DNA of 64,000 nucleotides, from NCBI GenBank assembly GCA_015057425.1, contig SVEL01000011.1, positions 5,518-69,517 on the forward strand. The letters run 5' to 3'. This DNA is from Lachnospiraceae bacterium (GTDB taxonomy: Bacteria > Bacillota > Clostridia > Lachnospirales > Lachnospiraceae). Made by a program: the position numbers and the translations under genes. Under the pieces are notes generated by a model. It did not search any database. It was not told the DNA's origin and worked only from the letters and a program-made list of their open reading frames with translations. This document shows positions 42,392 to 62,855 of the stretch, one piece after another (position 1 is the stretch's first letter; each line of letters begins with the position of its first letter).

Positions 42392-42449
42392 TAGCATTGT
42401 AAGGTAATTGGATTGTATGATTACAAAAAGTCTATTTGGGAGGAGAACA

Positions 42450-43295
42450 ATGAAGAAAAAGTTTTTTGCGGTAGTCGCTACGACTGTGATAACAGCTATG
42501 ATGTCGCTTACAGCATTTGCATCATCGTTTCAGCTTACAGAAAGTAGCACATACAAGTATGCCAATCCGTTAAAAGGTACTAATCCGGAAGAAGTAACTA
42601 TTGAATACACTATCACTGCAGCTGATAATGCAGCGGCAAATGGATGGGATGGTATATTATCATTCTATAACTCGAGTACATTGGGACGTGTTTCTATTCA
42701 AAGTCATCCGTATGTATGTTGGAATTCAGCTAATGCAGCAGCAGGATGGATTGACCATAAGGCATCAGCATTACAGATAAAGAAGGGCGTTGAACAGTCA
42801 TATAAGATTGTTATTAATAAGGATGGAATTCAGATGTTTTTAAATGGTGAAGCAATAACAAGTGCTGATACAGGTACATCGGCAGGCGATGCAACACCTA
42901 TAGCGGTTACATATCAGAATATTCTTGATGAAATTAACGGATGTGATTATTTCTTTGTAGGCGTAGGAAAAGCACAGTATTGCTATTGGAATACGGAGGT
43001 TTGTACGTTAACAGGCGTTAAAGTCAATGGTAAGGAATTTGACCCGGATAAGATTTTGCAGGAAGAGACAACGACGTTGGGAGTTCCTGAAAAGAACACT
43101 ATGGATTATGGTGTTCCTGTAGATGATAGCGGTTCAGTGAATATAGTGCCGGTTATTGTGGTATCGGTAGTTGCAGTTCTTGCAGTGGTTGTGGTTGTAG
43201 TTGTTCTTGTGATTGTTATATCTAAAGGAAAGAAAAAGAATAATGACGAAGAAATAAATAAAGAATCGCAGGAAGAGACGAATTCGGAAGAATAA
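42450..43295 (+). CDS. secreted, TM-anchored surface protein (lectin-like beta-rich ectodomain, acidic cytoplasmic tail)
   Basis: MKKKFFAVVATTVITAMMSLTAFA follows GGGAGGAG. C-terminal TM helix VPVIVVSVVAVLAVVVVVVVLVIVI, then KGKKK and an acidic tail. Confidence 0.75.
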   Translation: MKKKFFAVVATTVITAMMSLTAFASSFQLTESSTYKYANPLKGTNPEEVTIEYTITAADNAAANGWDGILSFYNSSTLGRVSIQSHPYVCWNSANAAAGWIDHKASALQIKKGVEQSYKIVINKDGIQMFLNGEAITSADTGTSAGDATPIAVTYQNILDEINGCDYFFVGVGKAQYCYWNTEVCTLTGVKVNGKEFDPDKILQEETTTLGVPEKNTMDYGVPVDDSGSVNIVPVIVVSVVAVLAVVVVVVVLVIVISKGKKKNNDEEINKESQEETNSEE

Positions 43296-44543: not shown

Positions 44544-44582
44544 TATTTGTGCTTGATTTATAGTTATTGAATATTGATAAGA

Positions 44583-44615
44583 AAAGGGATGCCAAAGTAA
44601 TGGCGTCCCTTTTTA
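44583..44615 (+). terminator. rho-independent terminator
   Basis: The aagggatgcc / ggcgtccctt stem followed by TTTT. Confidence 0.75.
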
Positions 44616-44746
44616 TGTGCATTTTTAACAAAAAAACTTTGATATAAAATAAAAAGCAGTGGCTTTGTACAAAATTACTAAAATTTCCAAAGGTATTAAA
44701 TTTTTATAAATATAGTAAATATGTACAAAAATAGGGGGTAGTTTTC

Positions 44747-44775
44747 TTGACTTTTAGGGTAATTATGTATATAAT
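44747..44775 (+). promoter_or_regulatory. promoter of the glycan-uptake locus
   Basis: TTGACT (44747-44752), 17 nt spacer, TATAAT (44770-44775). It leaves a ~155 nt leader. Confidence 0.6.
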
Positions 44776-44799
44776 CGTACCATAGTATCAATATGCCCT

Positions 44800-44837
44800 A
44801 TTGTGAAACCTACGTAAATTTGCGCATGTTTCACAAT
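44800..44837 (+). promoter_or_regulatory. perfect 10 bp inverted repeat in the leader (ATTGTGAAAC-N18-GTTTCACAAT)
   Basis: Read directly. It could be an operator or an RNA hairpin. A second small hairpin lies at 44861-44876. Confidence 0.4.
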
Positions 44838-44931
44838 AAATTATGCTCATTTGGCTGAAACATGCCGTTTGGCATGCTCCAAATGATACTGGACAAAAAA
44901 GAAATGATAAAACACAGAGGGAGGCAAGTGT

Positions 44932-47900
44932 ATGAAACGTCGAAGTATTACTCGTTTACTGGCTTTGTTGCTTGTAATCAGCGTTTTTGCATGTGACTTA
45001 ACGGTATTTGCAGAAACAGCAACAGCAGATGAGTCAGGCGATAAGACTGTTGCGGAAGAAACAACAGGTAATGATACGGAAGATGAAAAGTCCGATGATG
45101 CGTCAGAAAAAGACAAGGAAACTGATGCAAATGCAACTGAATACATTAGTGACAGAATTGACAAGAACTACACTAATATCAGTAGCAAGTATACTTATAG
45201 CAAATATACAGGAGATGTGATAAAGTACAATATCCTTGATATCTATAAGTCAACTGTTGATGCAGAGAAGAAAGTAGTTGATTCTCTTACAACAGAAACA
45301 TTGAATTATGAAAATGCAGATAAAGTTGTAGATATAGGCATGGGTGATACAGCTACATTTATCATTGATGTAGCACAGGCCGGTGTGTATGTATTTGCGA
45401 TGGATCAGGTTTGTTATGAAACAGATTCAATTCTTGCAGTTGAAATGACACTTAAAGTAAATGGTGAAGTGCCATTCTACGAATGTAACAGACTTGTATT
45501 TGAAAGCAAGTGGAAAGAAGCAGAAGAAAAAGTATATGATAAGTACGGTAATGAAATCGTTGCTTCTCCATCAAAGGTTGTTGAATGGAGCAAGGCATAT
45601 ATTAAGGATGCAAGCTTCAGATACACAACACCGCTTTTACTCCAGCTTGAAGCCGGTAAGAATGAAATTTCAATGAAGGTTACAGAAGGTAGTATCAAGA
45701 TTGGTGACTTCTATCTTATGGGCGAAACTTCAGTTCCAAAGTACGAGACAAATCATGTTGCAGAAGGAAACTTCTTCATACAGATGGAAGCTGAAAAGCC
45801 TACATATAAGAATGACTCATCAATTCGTCCGACATGTGAATATGATCCGGACCTTACACCTTACAACTCAAAGAAGAAAGTTCTTAACATTCTTGATAGT
45901 GCATCATTTGCAGATTCAGGTATGTCGTTGACATATGAATTTACTGTTCCAGCTGATGGATATTATTATATAGGAATGAACTACAGACAGTCAGATAAAG
46001 TTGACTTCCCTGTATTCACAAATATCTATGTAGATGGACAGATTCCAAATGACCAGCTTCAGGGATATGGAATCTACTATGCAAAGAACTTTAAGAAAAC
46101 AACTGTAAAAGATTCAAATGGTAAGAAGATGGGTATCTACCTTACAGAAGGTACACACCAGGTTACTATCGAACTTGCAAATGATAAGATTAGAGAATGT
46201 CTTGAAAGCTTCGACAGAGTAATGAGTGAAGTAAATGACCTTTCTCTTGAAATTACAAAGGTTGCAGGTACAACAACATCAGAATACCGTGATATTGAAA
46301 TTAAAGAATACATCCCTGATATTGAAGAGAGACTTCAGAGATGGATTGATGAAATAGAAGAATCATACAAATATCTTTCACAGTTCTCAAATGCAAAGAA
46401 CTGCGGTACAATTTCATACCTTGTAACAGCAATTGAAAGACTTGAAGATCTTGCAAAGGATCCTAACGATATTCCATATAGAAGAGGAGAACTTGCAACA
46501 GATACAGCTTCAGTTAACCAGGATATTGCTAATACAATCAACGAGTTAAATGCAAACAACCTCTCAATTGACTCAATATACATCTACCAGGAAGGTGGAA
46601 AAGATCAGATTCCTGGCAAGACAAACATTTTTGTTAAGATTTGGGAATCAGTGGTAAGATTTATAGCATCATTCGGTGCACAGTCGTACTCAACAGGTGA
46701 TGCTGATCCAACACATCTTCAGGTATGGATTAACAGACCAAGACAGTATCTGGAAATCATCCAGCAGTTAGTTGATACAACATTCACACCACAGACAGGT
46801 ATTGAAGTTGATCTTTGTATTATGCCGGATGCACAGAAACTCATTCTTGCAAATGCTGCAGGTGAATCACCTGACGTAGCACAGGCTATTGATTATACAC
46901 AGCCATTTGAGCTTGCTGTAAGAAATGCACTTGTGGATCTTACGCAATTTGAAGATTACAAAGAAGTAATGGGTTGGTTCCCGGAAGGTATTTTAGTACC
47001 TTCTGTAGCACCGTCAGATAATGAATATGGCGCAGGTATTTATTCATTGCCTGAGACGTTCTACTTCTGGGTATTGTTCTACAGAACAGATATTCTTGAA
47101 AAATTAAATATAGAAGTACCGGAGACGATGGCAGATGTTCAGACAATCATTCCACAGCTTAAGAACAGAGGTCTGGAATTCTTCTATCCTACAGCAGGTA
47201 CAACAGGTCAGAGATCATTTGCTATGACAACACCGTTATTATATCAGTACGGAACAAGTTTGTATGTGGCAACTGATGACGAAGCATCTTCAAAGGCATA
47301 CTATGCAACAGCTATTAACAGCGAAGATGGTATTGCAGGTTTTGAAGCACTTACAGAATTATTTACAATTTATGATATTCCACAGGAATGTTCATCGTTC
47401 TTCCAGCATTTCAGAAATGGTGATGTTCCAATCGGTATCGCAGATTACTTTATGTACAGCCAGCTTATCAATGCAGCTCCTGAAATTGAAAACTCATGGG
47501 AAATTTCATTAGTACCAGGTATTCAGCAGACAGATGCAGAAGGCAAGCCTATGTATGATGAAGAAGGTAAGCCAATCACACTTAATATGACAGCAGGTGC
47601 TGCACAGAATTCATGTATTATGAAGAGTGATAGTGATGTTCTTGTTACAAATATTAATGGTGGTGAAGATTACAAGAGAGAAGATGCTGCTTGGGAATAT
47701 CTTAAGTGGTGGATGTCAACAGAAACTCAGGTTGCATTTGGTAACAACCTTCAGATAACATATGGTAAGGAATATATTTGGAACTCAGCTAATATCGAAG
47801 CATTCCAGAAACTTTCATGGAAGAGCAGAGATAAGGCAATTATTGTAGAAGCAATGGAAAACATTGTTGAATCACCACGTATTCCTGGAACATATATGTT

Positions 47901-48108
47901 AGAGCGTGAATTAAGTAACGCATATATCGATGTTGTTATTAATGGTACAACATTAAGAACAGCATTAGATTCCGCTGTTAAGCGAATTGATAGAGAAACT
48001 AAACGTAAGTTACAGGAGTTTGGCTATCTTGATGAAAGTGGTAACATTGTAAAAGAATACTCTATACCATCAGTTGAAACGGTTAGAGAAATTATTGGAA
48101 CTAATTAA
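44932..48108 (+). CDS. giant extracellular solute-binding protein: acidic linker, two CBM-like beta-sandwich modules, coiled region, family-1 SBP domain
   Basis: 1058 aa with a signal peptide. The C-terminal ~450 aa look like a sugar ABC SBP. The N-terminal half has two similar modules (GVYVFAMD..., GYYYIGMNY...). Confidence 0.75.
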   Translation: MKRRSITRLLALLLVISVFACDLTVFAETATADESGDKTVAEETTGNDTEDEKSDDASEKDKETDANATEYISDRIDKNYTNISSKYTYSKYTGDVIKYNILDIYKSTVDAEKKVVDSLTTETLNYENADKVVDIGMGDTATFIIDVAQAGVYVFAMDQVCYETDSILAVEMTLKVNGEVPFYECNRLVFESKWKEAEEKVYDKYGNEIVASPSKVVEWSKAYIKDASFRYTTPLLLQLEAGKNEISMKVTEGSIKIGDFYLMGETSVPKYETNHVAEGNFFIQMEAEKPTYKNDSSIRPTCEYDPDLTPYNSKKKVLNILDSASFADSGMSLTYEFTVPADGYYYIGMNYRQSDKVDFPVFTNIYVDGQIPNDQLQGYGIYYAKNFKKTTVKDSNGKKMGIYLTEGTHQVTIELANDKIRECLESFDRVMSEVNDLSLEITKVAGTTTSEYRDIEIKEYIPDIEERLQRWIDEIEESYKYLSQFSNAKNCGTISYLVTAIERLEDLAKDPNDIPYRRGELATDTASVNQDIANTINELNANNLSIDSIYIYQEGGKDQIPGKTNIFVKIWESVVRFIASFGAQSYSTGDADPTHLQVWINRPRQYLEIIQQLVDTTFTPQTGIEVDLCIMPDAQKLILANAAGESPDVAQAIDYTQPFELAVRNALVDLTQFEDYKEVMGWFPEGILVPSVAPSDNEYGAGIYSLPETFYFWVLFYRTDILEKLNIEVPETMADVQTIIPQLKNRGLEFFYPTAGTTGQRSFAMTTPLLYQYGTSLYVATDDEASSKAYYATAINSEDGIAGFEALTELFTIYDIPQECSSFFQHFRNGDVPIGIADYFMYSQLINAAPEIENSWEISLVPGIQQTDAEGKPMYDEEGKPITLNMTAGAAQNSCIMKSDSDVLVTNINGGEDYKREDAAWEYLKWWMSTETQVAFGNNLQITYGKEYIWNSANIEAFQKLSWKSRDKAIIVEAMENIVESPRIPGTYMLERELSNAYIDVVINGTTLRTALDSAVKRIDRETKRKLQEFGYLDESGNIVKEYSIPSVETVREIIGTN

Positions 48109-48129
48109 GGAATAGGAGGAGAAAAAGTT

Positions 48130-49014
48130 ATGAGAACAGATAGAAAAAGTCCATTTTTCTTCTTGATTCCGTATGTAGCGTTGTTTACTGTATTTATTAT
48201 CTTACCTATCCTGGTAGCTATCGGCTTATCATTTACTAACTTTGATGCCGTTCAGACACCATCATTCGTAGGTTTTAAAAACTATATTAACGTAATTACA
48301 CAGGATTCAATTTTCATGCAGTATGTATTGCCAAATACAATAACATATGCGTTAGTAGTTGGTCCTGGCGGATATGCATTATCATTCTTGTTAGCTTGGG
48401 CGATTGCTCAGCTGACAAGAGTACCAAGAATTGTTTTAACACTTATACTTTATTCACCATCACTTACATCAGGTACTGCTATGGCGGTTCTTTGGAAGAT
48501 TATCTTCAGTGGTGACAGTATGGGTTACTTAAATGCCTTCCTTATTAAAGGTGGTATAATCAACCAGCCAATCACTTGGCTTACAAGTGCGGAATTCCTT
48601 CTTCCTATTATGATTATTGTAGGTTTATGGAGTAGTATGGGTGTTGGTTTCCTTGCTATTTTGGCAGGTATTATGAATACTAACGATGAACTTTATGAAG
48701 CCGGCGCTATCGACGGTATCAAGAACAGATTCCAGGAAATGATTTACATAACAGTTCCTACGATGAAGTCACAGATGTTGTTCGCTGCCGTTATGGCAAT
48801 CGTTGGTACATTCAATAACGGTGCTATCGGTGTTGCTCTTTCAGGATCAAACCCTACACCGGGTTATGCAGGACAGTTAATTGTTAACCACATTGATGAC
48901 TATGGATTTATCCGTTATGAAATGGGTTATGCAGCAGCTTGTTCAGTTGTGTTACTTATAATTATTGCATTCTTCTCAAAGGTTTTCTCAAACCTTTTTG
49001 CAGAGAAAGAATAG
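48130..49014 (+). CDS. carbohydrate ABC transporter permease (MalF-like)
   Basis: 294 aa, 6 TM helices, EAA-type loop (YEAGAIDGI). Confidence 0.88.
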   Translation: MRTDRKSPFFFLIPYVALFTVFIILPILVAIGLSFTNFDAVQTPSFVGFKNYINVITQDSIFMQYVLPNTITYALVVGPGGYALSFLLAWAIAQLTRVPRIVLTLILYSPSLTSGTAMAVLWKIIFSGDSMGYLNAFLIKGGIINQPITWLTSAEFLLPIMIIVGLWSSMGVGFLAILAGIMNTNDELYEAGAIDGIKNRFQEMIYITVPTMKSQMLFAAVMAIVGTFNNGAIGVALSGSNPTPGYAGQLIVNHIDDYGFIRYEMGYAAACSVVLLIIIAFFSKVFSNLFAEKE

Positions 49015-49030
49015 AAAGGAGAGCAGAAAA

Positions 49031-49903
49031 ATGGCCGGATACAAAGGTAGTAGAATCAATCCTAGAAATTTCAACAAGGATCAGCTTCCTATATATATAA
49101 TTTTGTTGCCATTGGCAATATTTATGCTCTTCCCACTTGTGTTTATTTTCTGTCATGCATTTAAACCAATGTCAGAGCTGTTTAAGTTCCCACCAAGTTT
49201 CTTTGTAGAGAGACCTGTAATGGACAACTTTGAAAACTTACTTAAATCTGCAAGAAACTCATCAATTCCTATCGGAAGATATATATTCAACAGCTTCCTT
49301 GTTACAATAGCTGTTATTCTTGCAAACATTATTATTTCAACAATGGCTGGATTTGCTCTTTCTAAGATGAAGTTTAAATTAAGAGGACCACTTTTCGCCA
49401 TTAACCAGGCGGCACTTATGTTCGTAGCAACTGCAGTGCAGATTCCAAGATATTTGATTATTTCCAATATTCATATAACGGATACATATTTTGCACATAT
49501 TTTACCGCTGATTGCGGCGCCTACGACATTGTTCCTCATTAAGCAGTTCATTGATGATGTTCCGGATTCGCTTATAGAAGCAGCCGTAGTGGATGGTGCT
49601 AATTCATTTAGAATATATAGCCAGATTATTATTCCACTTATTAAGCCTGCTATTGCAACCGGTGTTATCCTTTCTTTCCAACAGGTATGGGGATACTTGG
49701 AAAGTTCAAACCTTTATACAAATACAGAAAGTATGAAGACTCTTGTATTCTATATGAATACACTTGCAAATGCCAATAACGGTGTTCAGGGTCAGGGTGT
49801 TCAGGCTGCAGCCACACTTATATTATTTGTACCTAACCTTATAATATTCTTATTCCTCCAGAAGGACGTAATGAATACAATGGCACATTCAGGTATCAAA
49901 TAA
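49031..49903 (+). CDS. carbohydrate ABC transporter permease (MalG-like)
   Basis: ATG 49031 follows an AAGGAGAG RBS. EAA loop IEAAVVDGA. Confidence 0.88.
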   Translation: MAGYKGSRINPRNFNKDQLPIYIILLPLAIFMLFPLVFIFCHAFKPMSELFKFPPSFFVERPVMDNFENLLKSARNSSIPIGRYIFNSFLVTIAVILANIIISTMAGFALSKMKFKLRGPLFAINQAALMFVATAVQIPRYLIISNIHITDTYFAHILPLIAAPTTLFLIKQFIDDVPDSLIEAAVVDGANSFRIYSQIIIPLIKPAIATGVILSFQQVWGYLESSNLYTNTESMKTLVFYMNTLANANNGVQGQGVQAAATLILFVPNLIIFLFLQKDVMNTMAHSGIK

Positions 49904-49940
49904 GATTGGCGCGATACTTAAATATATAAAGGAGGATATC

Positions 49941-52067
49941 ATGAGGAAAGTCTTAAATAAATTATCCGCTGTGATTGCCGGAGTTATGGCTCTTCTCGTA
50001 GTTGCACAACCAATTGTGTCAATTGCAGATGTTCCATACAAGACATTCTCACAGAACGGATATGGAGAATATATTCAGTCTCAGACAGCCTATACACCGG
50101 GTGAGACTATTTATAAGATAGTAGATAACGCAACTGATGAAATCTATTATCTTGACGGTGCTAACGATATGATGCTTGCATCAGATGGCCTTATCTACAT
50201 TGCAGATACAGGTAATGACCGTATTTTGGTGTGTGACAAAGATGGTAACTTTGTTAAGAAGATAGATAATGAATCAATTGCACCTGAAGGTACACCTGAA
50301 GATGAAATTGAAAAGATTATTTACAAGCCTGAAGGTTTATATGTTACAGCAGAAGGTGATATATATGTATGTATCCCGCTTCTTTCGAAATATGTAAACT
50401 ATGGTGCTGTTCTTAAGTTCAACAGCGATGGTGAACTTGTAGACAGATATGATAAGCCTGAAAGCTTATTATTTGGTAACGACGCATACAAGCCAAGAAA
50501 ACTTATCGTAGATAACGGTGGTAATATGTATGTAGTATCACAGGGTAACAGTAATGGTATTGTACAGCTTACACAGGATAGTACATTCCTTGGATACTTC
50601 GGTACAGGTGAAGTTTTCTATAATTTTATGGATATTTTCTTAAATCTGGTATTATCAGATGAACAGCTTGCCAGCCGTGCTAAGAGAGTTCCACAGACAA
50701 CAAACAATCTTTGTATAGATAAGAAGGGTATTATCTACACATTGGTTGATGGTACATCAGGACAGACTCTCAAAAAGCTTAATAAAGCCGGTACTAATAT
50801 GCTTGAGCTTGAAGTTATGCCATTCTACGCTACTTCAGTAACAGTTGGTCAGTATGAAAATATTTATGTAGCAACATCAACAGGTTTCATCTATGAATAT
50901 ACTAAGGAAGGTACACTTCTCTTCAGATTTGGTGGTGAAGACTCAACATCAGATTATCGAGTGGGTCTTTTCTCAAAAGCCGGTATTTCAGCAATTGCAG
51001 TAGATGAAAACGATATGCTCTACGTACTTGATTCAAAGGCAAATACAATTAACAAGTTTAATACAACAGAGTTTACGGATTATGTTCACCAGTCGCTTGG
51101 TTATTACCAGAAAGGTGACTATGTAAATACTAAGATTTATCTTGAAGAAATCATTGATATGAACAGTATGTTTGACTATGCTAACCAAGCAATGGGTCTT
51201 ACATTATTCAATGAAGAAAAGTATGAAGAATCAATGGGATATTTCAGACTTGCAAAAGATAAACTTGGATATTCAGATGCATTCTGGGAAATCAGAAATG
51301 TGTGGCTTACAAACAATCTTATCATAGTTATAATAGCGGTTGTTGTTTTATTCTTAATATGGAAAGTATTAAGCACACTCGATAAGAAGAAGAAAATCTT
51401 TGATCCTGTAAGAAAAGTTACAGCAGGTGTAAGAGAAAATCTTATTGTAAGACAGATATTCTTCGGCTTTAGATTTATAAGACATCCTATAGATGGTGCA
51501 TATGAAATTAAGCATTATAAGATGTCATCAAACATAATATCTGCCGGATTGGTTGTTGTATATATGGTTATATTCATTATCAACAAATACTTTGGCGGAT
51601 TCCTTGTAAAGACTGCAAGAGACGGAAGATACAATCTTCTCGGAGATATCGGTATTTTTGTAATTGGTTTCCTTGCAGCAGGTATTGTTACTTATCTTAT
51701 TTGTACAATTAATGATGGTGAAGGCAAGTTTAAAGAAATTCTTGCCGGATATGTATATTCATTTACACCTTATTTGATTATACAGCCTATCTTATTTGTT
51801 ATAGGTATGGGAGTAACAAATAACGAAATGTTTATTATCGAATTTGCTAACCTGATAATGATAAGTTATATACTCATCCTTATGTTCTTGGCAATAAAAG
51901 AAATAAACAACTACACGGTTATGGAAACATTTAAGGTTATATTCCTTACAGTATTCGCTGCGTTCATATTTGCATTGATTATTTTCGTAATTTATGTACT
52001 TGGACAGCAGTTGATGAGTTTCGTAATATCAATCTATGGAGAGGTGGTGTACAGAATTGGCAGATAA
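49941..52067 (+). CDS. NHL-repeat beta-propeller, TPR-like segment and Yip1-type multi-TM domain protein
   Basis: 708 aa. Signal peptide, NHL-type motif IADTGNDRILVCDKDGNF, and a C-terminal ~230 aa with 5 TM helices. Confidence 0.7.
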   Translation: MRKVLNKLSAVIAGVMALLVVAQPIVSIADVPYKTFSQNGYGEYIQSQTAYTPGETIYKIVDNATDEIYYLDGANDMMLASDGLIYIADTGNDRILVCDKDGNFVKKIDNESIAPEGTPEDEIEKIIYKPEGLYVTAEGDIYVCIPLLSKYVNYGAVLKFNSDGELVDRYDKPESLLFGNDAYKPRKLIVDNGGNMYVVSQGNSNGIVQLTQDSTFLGYFGTGEVFYNFMDIFLNLVLSDEQLASRAKRVPQTTNNLCIDKKGIIYTLVDGTSGQTLKKLNKAGTNMLELEVMPFYATSVTVGQYENIYVATSTGFIYEYTKEGTLLFRFGGEDSTSDYRVGLFSKAGISAIAVDENDMLYVLDSKANTINKFNTTEFTDYVHQSLGYYQKGDYVNTKIYLEEIIDMNSMFDYANQAMGLTLFNEEKYEESMGYFRLAKDKLGYSDAFWEIRNVWLTNNLIIVIIAVVVLFLIWKVLSTLDKKKKIFDPVRKVTAGVRENLIVRQIFFGFRFIRHPIDGAYEIKHYKMSSNIISAGLVVVYMVIFIINKYFGGFLVKTARDGRYNLLGDIGIFVIGFLAAGIVTYLICTINDGEGKFKEILAGYVYSFTPYLIIQPILFVIGMGVTNNEMFIIEFANLIMISYILILMFLAIKEINNYTVMETFKVIFLTVFAAFIFALIIFVIYVLGQQLMSFVISIYGEVVYRIGR

Positions 52068-54768: not shown

Positions 54769-56011
54769 TAAAAATACTGAACAAGAAGTAAATGCTTTAA
54801 ATGAAGCAGTTTTGGAAGAAAATACATCCGAAGAAACTGCAGGTGCAGTTACTGAAAGCAGTGAAACACCTGAAAAAGAAGAAAAGAAGAAAAAGAAACG
54901 TAAGAAAACTTATTCTGTAGATGAACTCATCCAGCATAGTGATGAAATCGTTTATGAAGATGAGTTCCACAGAAAAGTTAAGATTAAAGTAAAAGTTAAA
55001 CAGGGTAAGCTTCTTAAGAGAGAAGCAAGAATGGGATATGTCTTTGTAGCTCCTTGGATTATCGGTGCATTAGTATTTTTACTTGTTCCGGTAGGAATTT
55101 CAATAGCTATGGCGTTCTCACGAGTTATCATTAAAGGTTTGGAATTAAGATTTAACGGCATAGAAAACTTCCAGTACATTTTTGAAAAAGAAAAGTACTT
55201 GTTAACTGAGCTGTTATCCTACCTTGTAGATACGGGAATATCTGTACCGCTTATAGTTGTATTTGCTCTTATTATGGCAATGCTTCTTAATATGAAGATA
55301 CGATTCAGAGGATTATTCAGAGCAATATTCTTCCTTCCTGTTATCGTAGTAAGTGGTCCTGTTATGACAAACATAACAAGTGATACATCACGTGTATCAA
55401 CAGTTGACTTGGAATTTGTACAGCTTTGGCTGGAAAATCTGCTTCCGGTATGGGCAGCAAACCCGATATTTGATGCATTCAGTAATATTATTATGATACT
55501 TTGGTATTCAGGCGTACAGATTCTTATATTCCTTGCAGCCATCCAAAAAATCGATACATCACTGTATGAAGCAGCTAAAATCGATGGTGGTTCAGGATGG
55601 GAATGTTTCTGGAAGATTACACTTCCTACAATTAAACCTATGATACTTTTAAATGCCATTTATACATTGGTATTCATATCACAGAGTAATAACTGGTTTA
55701 TCGATAGAATAACGGTAAAATACATTGAAGATAACTCTAACTATGGTAGAGCATCTGCATTAGCCTGGTTGTATACACTTATTGTTTTGGCTTTGGTAGG
55801 AGTAATCGTGTTACTCTTTATGCCAAAACAGGATCCGTATGTACGACAGGTTAAACGTACAAAACGTCTTGAAAAGAAGACACGTAAGCAGATTGCTAAA
55901 TCGCATAAGAGATCTATCAGAAATGAAAAGAAGTTCCAGAAGCATGTTGAAAAGCAGGCTATGTTACGAGCTAAAGGAAAATTAGTGGAAGGAGGTCGCG
56001 GTGATGAGTAA
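54761..56011 (+). CDS. carbohydrate ABC permease (MalF-like) with long charged N- and C-terminal extensions
   Basis: 416 aa. EAA loop YEAAKIDGG. Lys-rich N-terminus (EKEEKKKKKRKK) and a basic ~60 aa C-terminal tail. Confidence 0.85.
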   Translation: MSNKNTEQEVNALNEAVLEENTSEETAGAVTESSETPEKEEKKKKKRKKTYSVDELIQHSDEIVYEDEFHRKVKIKVKVKQGKLLKREARMGYVFVAPWIIGALVFLLVPVGISIAMAFSRVIIKGLELRFNGIENFQYIFEKEKYLLTELLSYLVDTGISVPLIVVFALIMAMLLNMKIRFRGLFRAIFFLPVIVVSGPVMTNITSDTSRVSTVDLEFVQLWLENLLPVWAANPIFDAFSNIIMILWYSGVQILIFLAAIQKIDTSLYEAAKIDGGSGWECFWKITLPTIKPMILLNAIYTLVFISQSNNWFIDRITVKYIEDNSNYGRASALAWLYTLIVLALVGVIVLLFMPKQDPYVRQVKRTKRLEKKTRKQIAKSHKRSIRNEKKFQKHVEKQAMLRAKGKLVEGGRGDE

Positions 56012-57170
56012 TGAATTAGAAAACAATGTTGCAGAAGAAGCAGTTGTAGAAGAAGCAGTTGCAGAAGAAACAGTTGCAGAAGAAGTTGTTGCACCGAAAC
56101 CTTCAAAAACTAAGGAAAAGAAGGAAAAAGCTCCTAAGATTAAGAAGACAAAAACTCCTTGGTCTAAGGAAAAGTTTATGAAGATACTTATGGGCAGTAA
56201 AGATGACATGGGGCTATTGAAAAAAATAGTAGTTTATGTTATACTTGTATGTGTAGGATTTATCTTCGTGTATCCGATTGCACAGATATTTGCTACAAGT
56301 TTTATGAGTGTTACTGACCTTGCGGATTCTTCAATTAACTGGATTCCTACAAAACTCAGTCTTGATAATTACATCGCAACGATTGGCGTTCTTGATTATT
56401 GGAATGCATTAATAGATAGTATACTTATATCAGGTGTACCGACTATTTGTCAGGTTGTTGTATGTGCTTTAGTAGGATACGGACTTGCAAGATATGACTT
56501 TAAGGGAAAGAAGCTTATGATGCTTATTCTTATCATATCCTTCATCATCCCTACACAGATTATGAATATTCCTATTTTCTGGGTTTATTCACAGCTTAAG
56601 TTGACAGGTTCAATCTTCGCATTTATTATGCCGGCAGCTTTTGCACAGGGATTCAAGAGTCAGCTTTTCATACTTATCTGTTGGTCATTCTTTAAGCAGA
56701 TACCAAAGGTACTTAATGAAGCTGCACAGATTGACGGTGCAGGACATATGAAACAGTTCTACAGAATAGCAATTCCTTCTGCGAAGGGTGCGTTAGTTGT
56801 AGTATTCCTGTTCTCATTTGTATGGTATTGGAATGAAGATTATCTTACAAGACTTTATCTTTATAAGTCAGGTAAGACTATAGGTGACTCTATCTTAAGT
56901 AATTTCCTTCCGGAAGGACTTAAAGATTGGACAACGTGGACACCGGTTATCAACCAGTTGCAGATATTTGATGCAGTATTTAATACAACGGTTACACAGG
57001 GTGCGACTGCACAGGGGCAGTCAGGCGGCTCAAGCGGTGTTCCATCTATCAACGTTGCATATAGTATGGCAGCCACAATATTATCAATAGCACCATTACT
57101 TATTATGTATCTCGTGCTCCAGAAGCAGTTCGTAGAAAGTGTGGATAGAGCAGGTATTACAGGTGAATAA
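56001..57170 (+). CDS. carbohydrate ABC permease (MalG-like) with acidic-repeat/basic N-terminal extension
   Basis: 389 aa. N-terminus EEAVVEEAVAEETVAEEVVAPKPSKTKEKKEKAPKIKK. EAA loop NEAAQIDGA. Confidence 0.85.
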   Translation: MMSNELENNVAEEAVVEEAVAEETVAEEVVAPKPSKTKEKKEKAPKIKKTKTPWSKEKFMKILMGSKDDMGLLKKIVVYVILVCVGFIFVYPIAQIFATSFMSVTDLADSSINWIPTKLSLDNYIATIGVLDYWNALIDSILISGVPTICQVVVCALVGYGLARYDFKGKKLMMLILIISFIIPTQIMNIPIFWVYSQLKLTGSIFAFIMPAAFAQGFKSQLFILICWSFFKQIPKVLNEAAQIDGAGHMKQFYRIAIPSAKGALVVVFLFSFVWYWNEDYLTRLYLYKSGKTIGDSILSNFLPEGLKDWTTWTPVINQLQIFDAVFNTTVTQGATAQGQSGGSSGVPSINVAYSMAATILSIAPLLIMYLVLQKQFVESVDRAGITGE

Positions 57171-57267
57171 TCATTCACAACACAAGGGAATAATCACTGT
57201 GCAGTCTTTGCACAGTGATTCCATATAAATTTAATAAAAAGGGAAAATAGAAAAGGAGGACATTATT

Positions 57268-58797
57268 ATGGCAAAGAACATGAAGAAGTTATTAGCATTA
57301 CTTCTCGTTGTTGCACTCGCTGCTACATGCTTCACAGCTTGTTCAGGCGATGGAAAGAAAAAAGTTAACATCCGTGATATTTACACAGATGTTGATATTA
57401 ATCTCAGTTATGCATTCTGGGAAGATGGTGACATCTTCGAGAAAATTTATCAGGATTGGCTTGCAAAATATCCTAACATCACAATTGATCCTGTAGAATT
57501 CCCAACAGGAACATTTACAGAATCATTAAAGGCATTATTCGCAGCTAACGATGCACCAGATATCTTCGGTATCATCGGCGGACCTGACTTCGCAATTGAA
57601 AATGGTATGTTATTGGATATGACATTACTTTGGGAAAACGATGATGATGCTAAGAAGGTAATCAGAGGTATCAACGATTTCAGAATCGGTTACTTCTCAA
57701 CAGATTACAAGTGGGCAACACCTATTAAATTCTACCCAGCAGCAGCTTTCATTAACAAGAATCTTATTATTGAAGATCTTAACATGGAAATGCCAGATCC
57801 AGATTGGACATGGGAAGATTATGAAGAATTCATCACAGACGTATCAGACGGTAAGAAAGTTGACGGATACAAAGTATTCGGTACAACAGGTGATGGCGGT
57901 TGCTTAACAGTTACATGGTACCCAATTATGTCAGACGGTGAATGTATCGGTGAGTTCGGTTGGACAGAAAAAGACGGTGGTTCTTACGATATGGAAAACT
58001 GGGCAGTAGGTATGAACCTTCAGGCACAGTGGGCTAAAGATGGTATCTACTATGAACAGGGTAACGCAGACTATAGAACAGAAACATACGGTAGTGCTGA
58101 TATCTATCCACAGGATCAGGGTCACGTAGCAGTTGAATGTTGCTGGTGGTATACATTCGCTAGATACTTTGATAATGATCAGGGTGAACAGAAGATGTTA
58201 GAGAACGGTGTTGTATATGTTCCATATATGCAGCCACATCTTGAATCAGTAGCTAAAGAAGACTATACATACATCGCAACAATGGATATCGGTGGTATCA
58301 ACTCAAGCTGTGGCGAATATGCTGTAGAAGCATATGAAGCTCTTAAGTACTTCACATGGGGTGCTGAAGGTTGGAAAGCTAAACTTAAATACTACCCAGA
58401 GATGCTTGAAGATGGTGTAGATTACGGTGTAGCTGGTGCTAAGTACGGTTCAAACTTCCCTATCAACTTAGATGATGAAGTTTGGGAAGCTTACAGAGCA
58501 CTTTGGGCTGGCGCTGATGATCCATACGGCAGAGGCGAATACTTCGATGATTTCTTCGACAGAGTAAAAGCAGCTAGATGGACATGTCTTGGTGCACCAC
58601 AGATTCCAGGTTTCGAAACATGGTTAAATGACTTCTACTTCTTAGAAGACTTTGAAGGTTCAGGCCAGTATGCTGGTATTGAAGCTGCAGTTCTTCAGGG
58701 TGGTGTAGATGCATCTGCTCATTATCAGGAACTTCAGGAAGCTGGTAACGCATACTTCGAAGAAAAGATTGGTGAAATCGAAGTAATGTTACAGTAA
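57268..58797 (+). CDS. extracellular solute-binding lipoprotein (sugar ABC)
   Basis: 509 aa. Lipobox LAATCFTAC. Confidence 0.85.
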   Translation: MAKNMKKLLALLLVVALAATCFTACSGDGKKKVNIRDIYTDVDINLSYAFWEDGDIFEKIYQDWLAKYPNITIDPVEFPTGTFTESLKALFAANDAPDIFGIIGGPDFAIENGMLLDMTLLWENDDDAKKVIRGINDFRIGYFSTDYKWATPIKFYPAAAFINKNLIIEDLNMEMPDPDWTWEDYEEFITDVSDGKKVDGYKVFGTTGDGGCLTVTWYPIMSDGECIGEFGWTEKDGGSYDMENWAVGMNLQAQWAKDGIYYEQGNADYRTETYGSADIYPQDQGHVAVECCWWYTFARYFDNDQGEQKMLENGVVYVPYMQPHLESVAKEDYTYIATMDIGGINSSCGEYAVEAYEALKYFTWGAEGWKAKLKYYPEMLEDGVDYGVAGAKYGSNFPINLDDEVWEAYRALWAGADDPYGRGEYFDDFFDRVKAARWTCLGAPQIPGFETWLNDFYFLEDFEGSGQYAGIEAAVLQGGVDASAHYQELQEAGNAYFEEKIGEIEVMLQ

Positions 58798-58828
58798 TTT
58801 TAAATTAAATAGTTTTTTATTATCCCTT

Positions 58829-58857
58829 CCCCGTGGCTCTTTGGCCACGGGGTTTTT
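58829..58857 (+). terminator. rho-independent terminator
   Basis: The ccccgtggc / gccacgggg stem followed by TTTTT. Confidence 0.8.
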
Positions 58858-58970
58858 CATGTGTTGAAAAATTACATTAAATCAATGAAAAGTACACTGT
58901 TTATACATATAAATGTATGGTATACTTTAATTAGCTTTAAACGACAAAATTTGTAGAAAGGAAAGACTTT

Positions 58971-61067
58971 ATGGCAATTGAAAAAATATCAGATATAAGA
59001 GTCGGAGATATGATTCTTAGATATGAACAGGAAAAGGATTTTGCAACAGCAGGTTTCTCAGTTATTCCTGCGGATTTGGGTATTGAGGATAAGAGAAAAT
59101 TTTATAGGATTAATTCTCTTGTACAGGTTAAACTTGTGGGAGATGTGTATCCAAATGCATACGGACACGGCTCATCCATGAGAAACAGCGAATCAGCTAA
59201 CAGACTTGATTATAAGAGACAGGAAGTTATAGAAACAGAGGATAAAAAGGAAGTTATTACTTATCTTGAAGATGCAAGGGGATATAGTGCAAAGCATATA
59301 GTTACATACTATGATGGTGATTTAAGCTTTGAAATGCACAATGAATACACCAATAATTCAGACAAGCCTATAACTATGGAAATGATTTCAAGCTTTGAAC
59401 TTGGTAACATAACACCTTTTGTAGAAGGTGACGCACCGGACACATTACTTGTGCACAGACTCAGAAGTAAATGGAGTCACGAAGGAAGATTACATACAGA
59501 GACGGTAGAGGATTTACAGCTTGAGCCATCATGGTCGACATGGTCAGTTTCATCAGAACGTTTTGGACAGCTGGGTTCAATGCCTGTTAAAAAATTCTTC
59601 CCATTTGTGGGCATAGAAGATACGAAGAATAATATTCTTTGGGGAGCACAGCTTGCACATGAAGCATCATGGCAGATGGAAGTATATCGTCAGGATGATG
59701 GCCTTCATATTTCCGGAGGTCTTGCAGACAGAGAGTTTGGTCATTGGACCAAGGTTCTTAAACCGGGTGAAACTATAGTTACACCAAAGGCAATCGTTAC
59801 AACCTGCAAGGGTGACATAGAGGTTCTTACACAGCGACTTACTCAGGCCGGACAGAAGTATGTTAACAAAGCTCCGGAATCAGAACAGACTCTTCCTATT
59901 ATTTTCAATGAATATTGTACAACATGGGGTTGTCCTTCACATGAAAATATAAGTGGCATTGTAAATGCCATTAAGGATAAAGGATTTGATTATTTTGTAA
60001 TTGACTGTGGATGGTTTAAAGAAGATGGTATACCTTGGGACATCAGTATGGGTGATTATAATATATCATCTACATTGTTCCCTGATGGTCTTGATAAGAC
60101 AGTTAAGATGATAAATGATAACGGAATGAAAGCAGGTATCTGGTTCGAAATAGACAATATCGGAAGCGCAGCTAAGTCATTCCACAATACAGAGCATCAG
60201 CTTAAAAGAGATGGTGTTCCGATTACTACATACAGCAGAAGATTTTGGGATATGACAGACCCTTGGGTGGAAGAATATCTTACGGAAAAAGTCATCGGAA
60301 CATTGAAGAAATATGGCTTTGAATATATGAAAATGGATTACAACGATACTATTGGTATCGGATGTGATGACGAAGATTCATTAGGCGAAGGTTTAAGAAA
60401 GAATATGGATGCTTCTGTTGAATTTGTGAGAAAAGTAGCACGTGAAGTTCCGGGTATTATACTTGAAAATTGTTCATCAGGTGGTCATAAACTTGAACCT
60501 CTTATGATGAGTATATGTTCAATGGCATCTTTCTCAGATGCACATGAATGTCCTGAAATACCTATTATTGCAGCAAATCTTCATAGAGCGATACTTCCGA
60601 GACAGAGTCAGATATGGGCAGTTATAAGAAAGAAAGATTCGCTTAAGAGAATCGCTTATTCTGTAGCCAATACATTCCTTGGAAGAATGTGTCTGTCAGG
60701 AGATGTTACAGAGCTTACAGATGCACAGTGGAAGGTAATTGATGATGGTATTGCATTCTACAAGAGAATTGCACCTATCATTAAAGATGGATTTACATAC
60801 AGATATGGCAGCCATATTACAAGTGAGAGACATCCGCAGGGATGGCAGGGCGTAGTACGAGTAGGTGAAAATGGAGAAGCATTTGTACTTGTTCATACAT
60901 TTAACGGAGAAATGCCTGATGAAATGACCATGGAATTACCTGAAGGTTGCGCATGCAACATAGCTGAAAAGTATTCAGATAGCGATTTTGATGTAAAACT
61001 TGACGGAAGAATGATTACATTTAAGTCAAAAGAAAATATGAAAGCTATGGCAGTTCTTTTGGCATAA
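58971..61067 (+). CDS. GH36 alpha-galactosidase, cytoplasmic
   Basis: 698 aa. Motifs FVIDCGWF, YMKMDYN and ENCSSGGHK typical of GH36 melibiases. No signal peptide. Confidence 0.85.
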   Translation: MAIEKISDIRVGDMILRYEQEKDFATAGFSVIPADLGIEDKRKFYRINSLVQVKLVGDVYPNAYGHGSSMRNSESANRLDYKRQEVIETEDKKEVITYLEDARGYSAKHIVTYYDGDLSFEMHNEYTNNSDKPITMEMISSFELGNITPFVEGDAPDTLLVHRLRSKWSHEGRLHTETVEDLQLEPSWSTWSVSSERFGQLGSMPVKKFFPFVGIEDTKNNILWGAQLAHEASWQMEVYRQDDGLHISGGLADREFGHWTKVLKPGETIVTPKAIVTTCKGDIEVLTQRLTQAGQKYVNKAPESEQTLPIIFNEYCTTWGCPSHENISGIVNAIKDKGFDYFVIDCGWFKEDGIPWDISMGDYNISSTLFPDGLDKTVKMINDNGMKAGIWFEIDNIGSAAKSFHNTEHQLKRDGVPITTYSRRFWDMTDPWVEEYLTEKVIGTLKKYGFEYMKMDYNDTIGIGCDDEDSLGEGLRKNMDASVEFVRKVAREVPGIILENCSSGGHKLEPLMMSICSMASFSDAHECPEIPIIAANLHRAILPRQSQIWAVIRKKDSLKRIAYSVANTFLGRMCLSGDVTELTDAQWKVIDDGIAFYKRIAPIIKDGFTYRYGSHITSERHPQGWQGVVRVGENGEAFVLVHTFNGEMPDEMTMELPEGCACNIAEKYSDSDFDVKLDGRMITFKSKENMKAMAVLLA

Positions 61068-61264
61068 AATCTAAAATAAAATACGATATAAAAATTAACC
61101 GGACGACTGAACCGTCTTATAAAAAAGACAGTACAGATTCGTTCGGTTAATTTATTATAAAAAATATTAAAAAAAAATAAACTCCATATGGACTATATAA
61201 AAATTATATGCTATTATAATATTGAGGTTTGCTATGAGCAAAACATATATAGGAGGAAATTGAA

Positions 61265-62788
61265 ATGAAAAAAGGAATTAAGAAACTGCTGTGTCTTATG
61301 CTTGTTGTAGCTATGGCGTCTACGGTTTTTACAGCTTGTTCAAGTGGTTCAAAGGGACCAAGAGTTGAACTTAAGCCTATGACGGAAGATGTTATTACAC
61401 TTACATATGCTTTCTGGGAAGATAAGGCTATAGTTGATTTAATTATGGAAGATTGGAATGCGTTATATCCGAATATTACGATTAATGCTGTTGAGTACAC
61501 GCCAAGTACTTTCAATGAAAATCTTAAGGCATTATTTGCTGCAAATGATGCACCTGACGTATTTGGTATAGTTGGTTCTATCGACTTTGCTATTGAGAAT
61601 GGTATGCTCCTTGATATGACAGGTCTTTGGGAACTTGATCCGGATGCAAAGGATGGAAAGATTTTAAAAGGAATTAACGATTTTGAGATTGGTTATTTCG
61701 GTACAGACTGTAAGTGGGCAACACCTATTAAATTCTACCCACATACAGCGCTTATTAACAAATATATGGTAGAAAATACAGCTAATAAGGAGATGCCGGA
61801 TACAGACTGGACATGGGATGAATATGAAGAGTTCGTTGAAAGTTTCCAGGGTATGAAGGATGACCGAGGATATAACCTTTATGGTATGAATGCCGCAGAT
61901 GGTACATCTCCTATTACATGGTATCCGATTGCTGCAGATGGAAATTGTATCGGTGAATTTGGTTGGACCGAATCAGAAGATGCAGAAGGCGGATGCTTCG
62001 ATATGGAAAACTGGGCATATGGTGTTACTCTTTACTATGATTGGATTGAGGAAGGCGTAATAGCATTACAGGATGAAGAAACAAGAAATAATCTCTGGGA
62101 AGGTTCTTATCCACAGGATATAGGTCTTGTTGCAGTTCGTAATGAAGCTTGGAATGGATTTGTAAGATACTTTGATAATGATGAACAGCCTATGTTAAAT
62201 AACAATGCCATCTTTGTTCCATATATTATGCCACATGTTGAAACAGTAGCAAAAGAAGATTATACATATATCGGCATTCTTGATATGGGTGGCATCAACT
62301 CAACACAGATTGAATACGGACGTGAAGCATATGAAGTGCTTAAGTTCTTTGCATGGGGTGCAGAAGGATGGAAAGCAAAGTTAAAATATTATCCTGATAT
62401 GACTGCAGATGAAACATACAGTGTAATGGGTGCTAAGACAGCAGATAACTTCCCAATCTGCCTTGATGATGAAGTATGGGAAGCATTTACAGATATTTAT
62501 GCTAACTGGAAAGGTGACCCATATGGAAGAGGCGATTACTTTAAAGATTTCTTTGCAAAAGTAAAAGCTGCAAGATGGACATGTCTTGGTTCACCACAGA
62601 TTCCTGGATTTGGTACATGGCTTGAAGAATTCTACTGGGGCGAAGAATTTGTTCCGGGATATTATGGAATTGAAACAGCAGTAGCAGCAGGAGCAGCTGA
62701 TCCATATGCATATTATGAACAGCTTGAAAAACGCGGTAATGAACTTAATCAGGAAAAGATTGATGAAATAAACGCAATGCTTAAGTAA
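61265..62788 (+). CDS. extracellular solute-binding lipoprotein, paralog of 57268-58797
   Basis: 507 aa. Lipobox STVFTAC. Long collinear identical stretches with the other SBP (LKALFAANDAPD, KWATPIKFYP, WGAEGWKAKLKYYP, KAARWTCLG.PQIPGF). Confidence 0.85.
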   Translation: MKKGIKKLLCLMLVVAMASTVFTACSSGSKGPRVELKPMTEDVITLTYAFWEDKAIVDLIMEDWNALYPNITINAVEYTPSTFNENLKALFAANDAPDVFGIVGSIDFAIENGMLLDMTGLWELDPDAKDGKILKGINDFEIGYFGTDCKWATPIKFYPHTALINKYMVENTANKEMPDTDWTWDEYEEFVESFQGMKDDRGYNLYGMNAADGTSPITWYPIAADGNCIGEFGWTESEDAEGGCFDMENWAYGVTLYYDWIEEGVIALQDEETRNNLWEGSYPQDIGLVAVRNEAWNGFVRYFDNDEQPMLNNNAIFVPYIMPHVETVAKEDYTYIGILDMGGINSTQIEYGREAYEVLKFFAWGAEGWKAKLKYYPDMTADETYSVMGAKTADNFPICLDDEVWEAFTDIYANWKGDPYGRGDYFKDFFAKVKAARWTCLGSPQIPGFGTWLEEFYWGEEFVPGYYGIETAVAAGAADPYAYYEQLEKRGNELNQEKIDEINAMLK

Positions 62789-62826: not shown

Positions 62827-62855
62827 AAAAGGACATCATAAAGATGTCCTTTTTA
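62827..62855. terminator. bidirectional terminator between convergent genes
   Basis: The aaggacatc / gatgtcctt stem with flanking A and T runs. Confidence 0.75.

Follow-up and report, generated by a model that had tools for sequence, protein, structure and literature searches.

A probable dual ABC-importer cassette with two predicted extracytoplasmic accessory proteins at a GH36-linked glycan-uptake locus of a Lachnospiraceae bacterium

Among the ATP-binding cassette (ABC) transporters, the sugar importers of the CUT1 type (TC 3.A.1.1), whose archetype is MalEFGK2 of Escherichia coli, include Firmicute systems that share an ATPase of the MsmX/MsmK type. A locus of related build lies in the stretch of DNA analysed here, a window of 64,000 nucleotides (positions 5,518 to 69,517 of the forward strand of contig SVEL01000011.1, assembly GCA_015057425.1) from a Lachnospiraceae bacterium whose genome of 2.47 Mb is 90% complete. 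The locus resembles CUT1 importers in having two BPD_transp_1 permeases per importer, with EAA loops, together with MalE-like or lipoprotein substrate-binding proteins (SBPs) and a MalK-type ATPase encoded elsewhere. It differs from them in that two complete permease pairs stand in one operon, that one SBP has 1058 amino acids (aa) and carries two extra beta-sandwich modules and a helical stalk, and that there are two obligate extra genes, which occur in no CUT1 system described in the literature searched. One of these encodes a membrane protein with an NHL propeller and a Yip1 domain (NHL/Yip1), and the other a member of the Pfam family DUF5696. The giant binding protein is called gSBP in what follows, the permeases of importer 1 are F1 and G1, and those of importer 2 are F2 and G2.

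Two other described systems invite comparison. YknW of the Bacillus YknWXYZ system is likewise a Yip1 membrane protein encoded with a Firmicute ABC transporter; it modulates how the YknXYZ complex assembles and is needed for this (PMC4887032). However, YknYZ is a MacB-type exporter and YknW is without an ectodomain, whereas the Yip1 domain of the cassette is fused to, or encoded beside, an NHL propeller of about 450 aa plus a helical region and accompanies a type I importer. The Gram-positive polysaccharide utilization loci (gpPULs) of Roseburia and Eubacterium rectale also cluster transporter, glycosidase and SBP genes for one dietary glycan. By definition, a locus counts as a gpPUL if it has, together, a transporter, an enzyme that degrades the glycan and a transcriptional regulator. 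The window locus has the enzyme and the transporters, but neither a regulator nor an ATPase gene was found in the locus or its flanks, and the NHL/Yip1-DUF5696 pair is not a feature of the gpPULs described in the literature searched. No paper found in that literature deals with the cassette, with a DUF5696 protein or with a Yip1 protein in sugar uptake. Judged by the papers searched, the cassette is an undescribed variant of the ABC glycan importers, with two putative, uncharacterised accessory proteins, and not a new kind of system.

Conservation of the cassette

The locus comprises ten genes, all on the + strand (Table 1). An earlier sequence-only reading of this DNA had listed the same ten, each of which was recovered by the ORF map and the family scans, and the role in glycan uptake that it proposed was borne out. 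It had also regarded the NHL/Yip1 gene and its neighbour as an odd insertion into a composite locus, a view that comparison with other genomes overturned. A pattern scan in which every species was represented by a single genome yielded 414 species with a DUF5696 relative, and synteny was counted in the best 80 of these 414 species loci, whose genes were labelled by ORF calling and phmmer. In the 80 loci the order gSBP-F1-G1-NHL/Yip1-DUF5696-F2-G2-SBP recurs wherever the contig allows; the eight-gene core is strictly complete in 54, and the order also holds in most of the remaining 26, which are cut or have miscalled ORFs. More distant loci were taken from a sample of 401 genomes (278 genera) drawn evenly from the phylum, as the 20 kb around 20 DUF5696 matches in at least 12 GTDB families. 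All 20 contain the kernel NHL/Yip1-DUF5696-F2-G2, and gSBP-F1-G1 adjoins it in 16, in three of which it lies downstream instead of upstream. Because the kernel persists in these distant loci, NHL/Yip1 and DUF5696 make up a fixed core that goes with the second permease pair. The locus is very probably one copy of a conserved uptake cassette of the Clostridia and other Bacillota.

The close association of the kernel genes extends to their junctions and their rates of change. In the complete cores the NHL/Yip1 and DUF5696 genes always overlap as called, the median distance from DUF5696 to F2 is -4 nt, and F2 overlaps G2. Identity to the window proteins falls into two tiers, the first holding F1 (61-78%, the most conserved core part), G1 (56-69%) and the C-terminal domain of gSBP (46-63%), and the second F2 (46-53%), G2 (42-57%), DUF5696 (33-38%) and SBP2 (27-40%, the fastest-evolving part). 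Pairwise-distance correlations over the 54 cores group NHL/Yip1, DUF5696, F2 and G2 at r 0.88-0.92, apart from F1/G1, with partial correlations of 0.47 for NHL/Yip1-F2, 0.41 for DUF5696-G2, 0.32 for DUF5696-SBP2 and 0.48 for F1-G1; they agree with the gene order but are soft evidence, shared phylogeny being only partly removed.

DUF5696 occurs in 32 of the 401 sampled genomes (19 of the 278 genera), some of which have three copies, and clustering at 50% identity divides the family into at least 2,373 clusters. In a Clostridiaceae metagenome-assembled genome, a second cassette (gSBP and a permease) begins about 2.6 kb past the end of the first (L023:18447-22215). This second copy and the genomes with three copies of DUF5696 indicate that the cassette has multiplied within genomes.

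Transcription signals point to a single unit. The predicted promoter and the terminator, which is the sole strong + strand terminator of the region, bracket the eight genes from gSBP to SBP2, making these the likely unit. From gSBP to G2 (44932-57170) the genes overlap or are separated by gaps of at most 37 nt, and the gap between G2 and SBP2 is 97 nt. The one transcript previously suggested for gSBP to G2 is therefore likely, and would extend on to SBP2. From the sequence, GH36 and SBP3 look like separate transcription units; both have AT-rich upstream regions of their own with plausible -10 boxes (read by eye), and no terminator follows GH36. As for the two kernel proteins, neither turned out to belong to a characterised enzyme family unrelated to transport, and neither was found in a transcription unit of its own.

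Table 1. Features of the locus and its flanks, in positions of the window
Feature	Position	Strand	Description
295-aa secreted protein	42408-43295	+	C-terminal transmembrane anchor; no Pfam family; separate transcription unit
LamG/ConA-like surface protein	43446-44543	+	365 aa; C-terminal transmembrane anchor; Laminin_G_3 E 8e-12
Promoter (predicted)	44747-44775	+	sigma-70-type, TTGACT-17-TATAAT; 11/12 consensus matches, best in region
5' leader	44776-44931	+	~155 nt; aligns poorly with relatives downstream of promoter
gSBP	44932-48108	+	1058 aa; signal or lipoprotein peptide, two beta-sandwich modules, helical bundle, MalE-like SBP domain
F1	48130-49014	+	MalF/UgpA-like permease; BPD_transp_1 E 5e-8
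G1	49031-49903	+	MalG/UgpE-like permease; BPD_transp_1 E 3e-9; UgpE model E 2.4e-33
NHL/Yip1	49941-52067	+	NHL beta-propeller, TPR-like helical region, transmembrane helix, Yip1 multi-pass domain
DUF5696 exoprotein	52057-54768	+	PF18952 E 3.7e-133; N-terminal signal or anchor
F2	54761-56011	+	permease; BPD_transp_1 E 1.3e-8; EAA loop at residue 270
G2	56001-57170	+	permease; BPD_transp_1 E 1.7e-9; EAA loop at residue 240
SBP2	57268-58797	+	lipoprotein, ~510 aa, SBP_bac_1-like
Terminator (predicted)	58829-58857	+	intrinsic; 10-bp stem, 8 G-C pairs, then TTTTT; 32 nt past SBP2 stop
GH36	58971-61067	+	cytoplasmic glycosidase, alpha-galactosidase or beta-L-arabinopyranosidase type; no signal peptide
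SBP3	61265-62788	+	lipoprotein; SBP2 paralogue
Hairpin and T-run	62831-62854		GGACATC-ATAAA-GATGTCC-TTTTT between convergent SBP3 and M14 peptidase; not in consensus scan

Parts of the importers, their ATPase and the flanks

The gSBP has no Pfam match. In an AlphaFold2 (AF2) model built from 29 orthologues (pLDDT 82), a signal peptide is followed by two beta-sandwich modules, the first at about residues 90-263 and the second at about 280-415; residues 421-540 then form a helical bundle and residues 544-1058 an SBP fold. The top Foldseek match of this last part is the sophoro-oligosaccharide binding protein Lin1841 (5ysb, TM-score 0.84), and residues ~590-870 also match Listeria Lin1841 by phmmer (E 4.9e-9). 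The two modules had been called carbohydrate-binding-module (CBM)-like, and two beta-sandwich modules are indeed present in the model; no Pfam CBM family matches them (79-272, 274-422) at E<5, nor does any Pfam family match the helical linker, so the likeness is one of shape only. All four permeases match PF00528 above its cut-off. The EAA motif is seen in G1 (at ORF residue 205), F2 and G2, and its regular expression is unmatched in F1. The G1 ORF opens at 48965, but translation most likely starts from the ATG at 49031: this codon has a ribosome-binding site, and the product is then 290 aa long, like its homologues.

The NHL/Yip1 protein is directly upstream of DUF5696 wherever the contig reaches, and in 8 of the 20 distant loci its NHL part and its Yip1 part are two separate genes. 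Both parts have Pfam matches: NHL (PF01436) at 4.7e-8, with 33.1 bits against a cut-off of 20 (and SGL at 4.4e-6), and Yip1 (PF04893) at 6e-7 over residues 536-681, with 29.9 bits against a cut-off of 28.6. The TPR region of the earlier description corresponds to weak PDB matches alone, at residues 371-436. The PDB sequence matches of the predicted propeller are designed propellers and TRIM NHL domains. Hydropathy indicates an N-terminal signal followed by six hydrophobic segments at 460-684, five of them within 529-684. The Pfam scan revealed no signalling output domain in this protein.

The permeases of importer 2 carry extensions: F2, whose start overlaps the DUF5696 stop by 8 nt, has about 90 aa at its N-terminus that are acidic and then basic, and a basic C-terminal tail, while G2 has a charged N-terminal extension of about 65 aa. 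These charged stretches, acidic and then lysine-rich (54761-55050, 55850-56011 and 56001-56200), are retained in the closest relatives, where F2 has 402-450 aa and G2 388-402 aa. The proteins of the distant cassettes are shorter (F2 ~300 aa, G2 ~330 aa), and the extensions are therefore absent there. A metatranscriptome contig from a related strain skips 169 nt within F2 (55344-55514), which is probably a chimera or a strain variant and not a real deletion. SBP2 scores 23.2 bits against the SBP_bac_1 cut-off of 26, which SBP3 exceeds, and a PDB search with SBP2 returned no informative ligand clue. That the two are paralogues, as previously noted, is clear from 57% identity over 516 aligned positions (full length). 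SBP3 is found at the same place in loci L133 and L135, and a GH43 gene occupies that place in more distant relatives. In the distant loci an SBP gene often follows G2; in some there is none.

The suggestion that the missing ATPase is borrowed found a candidate. On another contig there is an orphan MalK/MsmX-type ATPase gene (G000 C27:177034-178179) with ABC_tran, OB_MalK and TOBE_2 domains, the sole gene of the genome with a MalK OB domain, which adjoins a PucR-type regulator and no permease. Three other permease pairs in the genome were matched by our queries. With one orphan MalK-type ATPase and so few permease pairs, a shared ATPase is the natural reading, and we infer that the orphan serves this system. 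Since the locus provides two of about five CUT1-like permease pairs and all three of the SBP-like ORFs detected, the cassette is probably a main sugar entry route of this bacterium. The lack of a regulator, which had seemed less expected, holds at this locus; copies of the cassette in other genomes adjoin LacI, winged-helix or histidine-kinase genes, and the missing regulator is thus a local trait.

A regulator encoded in trans is hinted at by the region upstream of the promoter. The promoter and about 45 nt upstream of it (ATATAGTAAATATGTACAAAAATAGGGGGTAGTTTTC; 44700-44775) are nearly identical in the closest relatives (L133, L135, L013 and L001), and in five genomes there is little or no variation in the -35 and -10 boxes and in the part upstream of -35 where TGTACAAAAA stands. 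The element TGTACAAAA occurs twice upstream of the promoter (44666 and 44722), is conserved in relatives and may serve as the operator of a trans-acting regulator; it is not enriched genome-wide (70 found against 52 expected) and marks no obvious regulon. A search of the leader region (44500-45000) gave no Rfam family at E<=1 beyond chance-level matches.

Upstream of the cassette are two genes for surface proteins. The 295-aa protein has counterparts in the corresponding place in L133 and L135, with 74% identity, and LamG orthologues stand directly upstream of gSBP in L135 (75% identity), L133, L001, L013, L003, L005, L007 and L008. Being syntenic across the clade, the two genes may be functionally linked to the cassette. 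L133 and L135, whose DUF5696 proteins are 68% identical to that of the window, retain the whole arrangement of a 271-aa protein, LamG, the eight core genes, GH36 and SBP3. The downstream flank of the window locus is a convergent M14 peptidase gene, which is kept in L135; the downstream gene in L133 has an SH3_3 match alone and runs off the locus.

Fold and possible activity of the DUF5696 protein

The protein of about 900 aa that had been listed as unknown is a full-length member of DUF5696. Its ORF opens at 52036, and the TTG at 52057 has a ribosome-binding site; the database copy (P0004) has 903 aa. PF18952 is its sole family match, and searches of the PDB by phmmer and with a 27-sequence profile returned no glycosidase or any other chain. 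In the AF2 model built from 27 sequences (pLDDT 84, pTM 0.86), an N-terminal beta-sandwich leads into a (beta/alpha)8 barrel (about 439-755), which is followed by C-terminal beta domains and an extension at 787-910. Compared with the PDB by Foldseek, the model matches GH129 enzymes first (ZgGH129 5opq at E 4.5e-30; 8rzk; NagBb 5wzn at TM-score 0.74), with TM-scores of 0.70-0.74 on the target, followed by GH101, GH36, GH31 and GH97. With this GH129/GH101-like predicted fold in the locus, GH36 is not alone among its proteins in resembling a glycosidase. The barrel of GH101 resembles that of the GH13 alpha-amylases and the catalytic domain of GH129 (NagBb) resembles GH101, and sugar recognition in GH129 is aided by Ca2+ and a Trp platform (PMC8106489). 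The DUF5696 model shares the three-domain architecture and the barrel fold of these families (the alpha-N-acetylgalactosaminidase NagBb, 5wzn, and the 3,6-anhydro-D-galactosidase ZgGH129, 5opq; the endo-alpha-N-acetylgalactosaminidases of GH101), but at 12-14% identity and with no match at the level of sequence or profile; unlike them, DUF5696 is without a conserved Asp at the putative nucleophile position and is always encoded within a transporter operon.

Two further features of the protein may be recorded. A GH13/CBM48 branching-enzyme-like protein (G000 C27:30596-32590) gives a marginal match to the DUF5696 profile over GH13 region I, which fits a distant kinship of the DUF5696 barrel with GH13-type barrels. 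In the window clade the protein ends in a tail of about 125 aa (54415-54768, residues 787-910) with two repeats of about 45 aa, of the form VY.DY.N...A..NG.(M/L)VYGYN followed by a helix; this tail is missing in most of the family, and database matches stop near residue 786.

Residue conservation was compared between 81 orthologues, which form the subfamily of the window protein, and the 20 distant members. In the orthologues 108 positions are at least 90% conserved, many of them at the C-terminal ends of barrel strands, and the near-invariant acids are D257, D442, D447, E449, D533, E641 (89%), E692 (99%) and E716. Residue 641, the putative beta5 end, is E or D in those 89% and N in the window protein. 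In the distant members D442, D447, E449, D533, E641, E692 and E716 all vary, and about half have an Asp at 601, often as Arg-Asp. Because most of the conserved acids vary in this way, the pocket appears to diversify between subfamilies, like specificity sites. A single ligand common to all cassettes was considered for this pocket and rejected, as the residues that are invariant in the arabino-type subfamily differ among the 20 distant members.

Two weak alignments, one with the GH36 family by hhalign (68 columns, probability 0.3), a hint on the strand register only, and the marginal one with GH13 region I, place strand 526-533 at beta3, which would make the end of strand 596-600 the nucleophile site. 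The chance that DUF5696 is catalytically active comes close to even, and a non-catalytic binder is a somewhat lesser, though quite real, possibility. The alternative that survives best, still rather doubtful, is that DUF5696 is a pseudo-glycosidase acting as a binding or docking subunit of F2/G2 that does not catalyse, or standing in for a binding protein. The eukaryotic SLC7 transporters offer a parallel in their GH13-like heavy chains (4F2hc, rBAT), which are catalytically dead. Residue 600, the putative equivalent of the beta4 nucleophile of GH13, GH36, GH101 and GH129, is Ser, Ala or Thr in 71 of the 81 orthologues (Glu in the window protein), and no barrel acid is conserved family-wide, as would suit such a subunit; so would the position of DUF5696 in a transporter operon, never alone, in every locus examined, and the lack of an SBP gene after G2 in some distant loci. 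However, the barrel face of the subfamily looks like an active site, with R440, D442, W488, Q489, N538, W648, N690, E692 and E716 invariant, the Asp at 601 of about half the distant members could be a canonical nucleophile, and all 81 near members, like 16 of the 20 distant ones, have D257. Catalytic residues are relocated in GH97 and such relatives, so an empty nucleophile position does not prove inactivity.

Substrate, proposed mechanism and significance

The GH36 protein matches Melibiase (PF02065) at E 4.8e-28, with 98.6 bits against a cut-off of 27, and retains the KxD nucleophile motif ('KMDYN' against 'KWDMN' of 3mi6) and the SD acid/base motif ('FSDAHE' against 'TSDDTD'). Its PDB matches are all alpha-galactosidases (3mi6 at E 6e-25, 2xn0, AgaA and AgaB, up to 91 bits). 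These data would fit a plain alpha-galactosidase in a locus importing raffinose-family oligosaccharides or galactomannan fragments, the substrates put forward in the sequence-only reading. We consider this unlikely and no longer the best guess, as the identity to the PDB alpha-galactosidases is low, the best curated match is the BAD_1528 beta-L-arabinopyranosidase model, and the surroundings of the locus hold no GH26, GH5 or GH113 mannanase and no sucrose-handling gene. Moreover, most of the 80 nearest cassettes are flanked by GH43, GH43 plus GH43_C or GH51 genes. Within the 80, GH36 follows the core in just the 17 loci nearest the window, where it is usually followed in turn by a 540-aa GH43 with a Big_4 domain. 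These GH43 proteins are closest to the alpha-L-arabinofuranosidases 3akf and 5m8e, which we take to be GH43_26 exo-alpha-1,5 enzymes, and to their GH43 relatives in the PDB (E ~1e-72 to 1e-80). According to two reports, bifidobacterial GH36 enzymes of this kind act on Gal-alpha-1,3-Ara or Arap-beta-1,3-Ara of arabinogalactan protein (PMC8056906, PMC8367640).

The GH43 and GH51 neighbours in relatives and the best curated match of GH36 together favour an arabinose/galactose-type substrate over raffinose or galactomannan. We tentatively suggest, at not quite an even chance, an arabinose- and galactose-containing plant oligosaccharide from arabinan or arabinogalactan side chains. The closest described enzymes are BAD_1528 of Bifidobacterium adolescentis, which is intracellular, splits Arap-beta-1,3-Ara, a disaccharide, and lies in an arabinosidase gene cluster (PMC8056906), and BlAga3, a GH36 alpha-galactosidase for gum-arabic side chains. 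They resemble the window enzyme as intracellular GH36 proteins encoded near sugar transporters and L-arabinosidase genes and acting on small imported oligosaccharides (PMC8056906; PMC8367640). The window enzyme scores 172 bits against the cut-off of 1100 of the BAD_1528 model, far too low for an equivalog. In Clostridium phytofermentans many ABC transporters are induced on arabinan (RNA-seq, PMC4230839), a result that is not mapped to the cassette and not used here as evidence. GH43-like ORFs number at least eight in this genome and GH51-like ORFs at least six, and a gene for GH43 plus GH43_C lies on the - strand at 17345-18718, amid housekeeping genes and 26 kb upstream of the cassette. The distant cassettes adjoin GH26, GH10, GH3 and pectate-lyase genes, so that the core machinery appears to be glycan-agnostic.

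The best explanation of the locus is probably a dual ABC-importer cassette with two extracytoplasmic accessory proteins, of which this is a GH36-linked local copy. One transcript, running from the promoter to the terminator, would supply two CUT1-type importers and the two accessory proteins. Importer 1 (gSBP/F1/G1) would take up a conserved class of oligosaccharide, the modules and the helical stalk of gSBP probably catching longer glycan chains. NHL/Yip1 and DUF5696, to go by gene order and co-variation, are probably accessory parts of importer 2: the Yip1 domain could assemble the complex at F2/G2, as YknW does for YknXYZ (PMC4887032), and the propeller and helical region could hold DUF5696 at the surface. 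There DUF5696 would engage the surface glycan, trimming or presenting it, and SBP2 and SBP3 would hand its products to F2/G2. The single orphan MalK/MsmX-type ATPase would power both importers, and the cytoplasmic GH36 would take off a terminal alpha-Gal or beta-L-Arap once the oligosaccharide has been imported. A bolder version, which we regard as unlikely, is that NHL/TPR/Yip1 and DUF5696 are obligate accessory subunits of a class new to type I ABC importers. A glycosidase-fold ectoprotein docked on F2/G2 by a Yip1-anchored propeller would then cut the glycan or hand it over at the mouth of the transporter, and the cassette of seven to eight genes would be a Gram-positive counterpart of SusC/SusD, the signature by which such utilization loci are recognised in Bacteroidota, and could serve in the same way to find and classify glycan-uptake loci throughout the Bacillota.

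Several points must be set against the dual-importer explanation, beginning with the softness of the distance correlations and the Ser, Ala or Thr at residue 600. The clade of the window (P0003, P0005, P0006, P0007, P0009 and P0010) has also replaced E225, D533 (now E or N), E641 and E704, and the register on which the nucleophile site was placed comes from the secondary structure of the AF2 model (DSSP) and two very weak alignments. Contigs of RNA, mostly 90-99% identical, cover the core genes, with none over GH36/SBP3 (59276-62395) and one ending at 58825. They fit the eight-gene unit, as weak evidence, but being short contigs of a related strain from one gut metatranscriptome they cannot show co-transcription. 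What the analysis establishes is the gene content and its fixed order, the co-variation of the kernel, the predicted fold, the promoter and terminator signals and the orphan ATPase; we infer the physical association of NHL/Yip1, DUF5696 and F2/G2 from gene order and co-variation, and hydrolysis and the substrate are proposals. As to the substrate, the score of GH36 is far below the cut-off of its best curated model, and the window locus itself is without GH43 or GH51.

It is also very unlikely that the cassette serves mainly to sense a glycan through the NHL/TPR ectodomain, or to remodel the cell's own wall polysaccharide, and not for nutrient uptake. The lack of a regulator at the locus, the variable LamG surface-protein genes directly upstream, syntenic in the clade, and the general nature of NHL and TPR domains as interaction modules would agree with such a role, but every copy examined contains the parts of an SBP-dependent type I importer, most of the 100 loci adjoin plant-glycan enzymes (GH43, GH51, GH36, GH10, GH26, GH3 or pectate lyase), and NHL/Yip1 is without a signalling output. 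Scarcely credible, finally, is a chance or recent composite of two independent ABC importers with two unrelated genes between them: although the importers differ in the subfamilies of their SBPs and permeases (SBP2 has no significant similarity to the C-terminal domain of gSBP), evolve at different rates, and are joined variably in distant loci, gSBP-F1-G1 being downstream in three and absent or partial in four, the order holds in the 54 complete cores and the kernel in all 20 distant loci, overlapping genes span the would-be junctions, all eight genes lie between one promoter and one terminator, and protein identities of 33-45% among the survey loci speak against one recently transferred element.

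The cassette is common to hundreds of plant-fibre-degrading Gram-positive gut bacteria, and its copies adjoin genes of enzymes that act on arabinan or arabinoxylan, on xylan and mannan, and on beta-glucosides and pectin. If NHL/Yip1 and DUF5696 are indeed accessory subunits, they would represent a new architecture for ABC importers, and DUF5696 would give biochemistry a new glycoside-hydrolase-like family or a new family of pseudo-enzymes. The cassette would also mark glycan-uptake loci in the genomes of the butyrate-producing Firmicutes of the gut and rumen, whose use of fibre is far less understood than that of Bacteroides.

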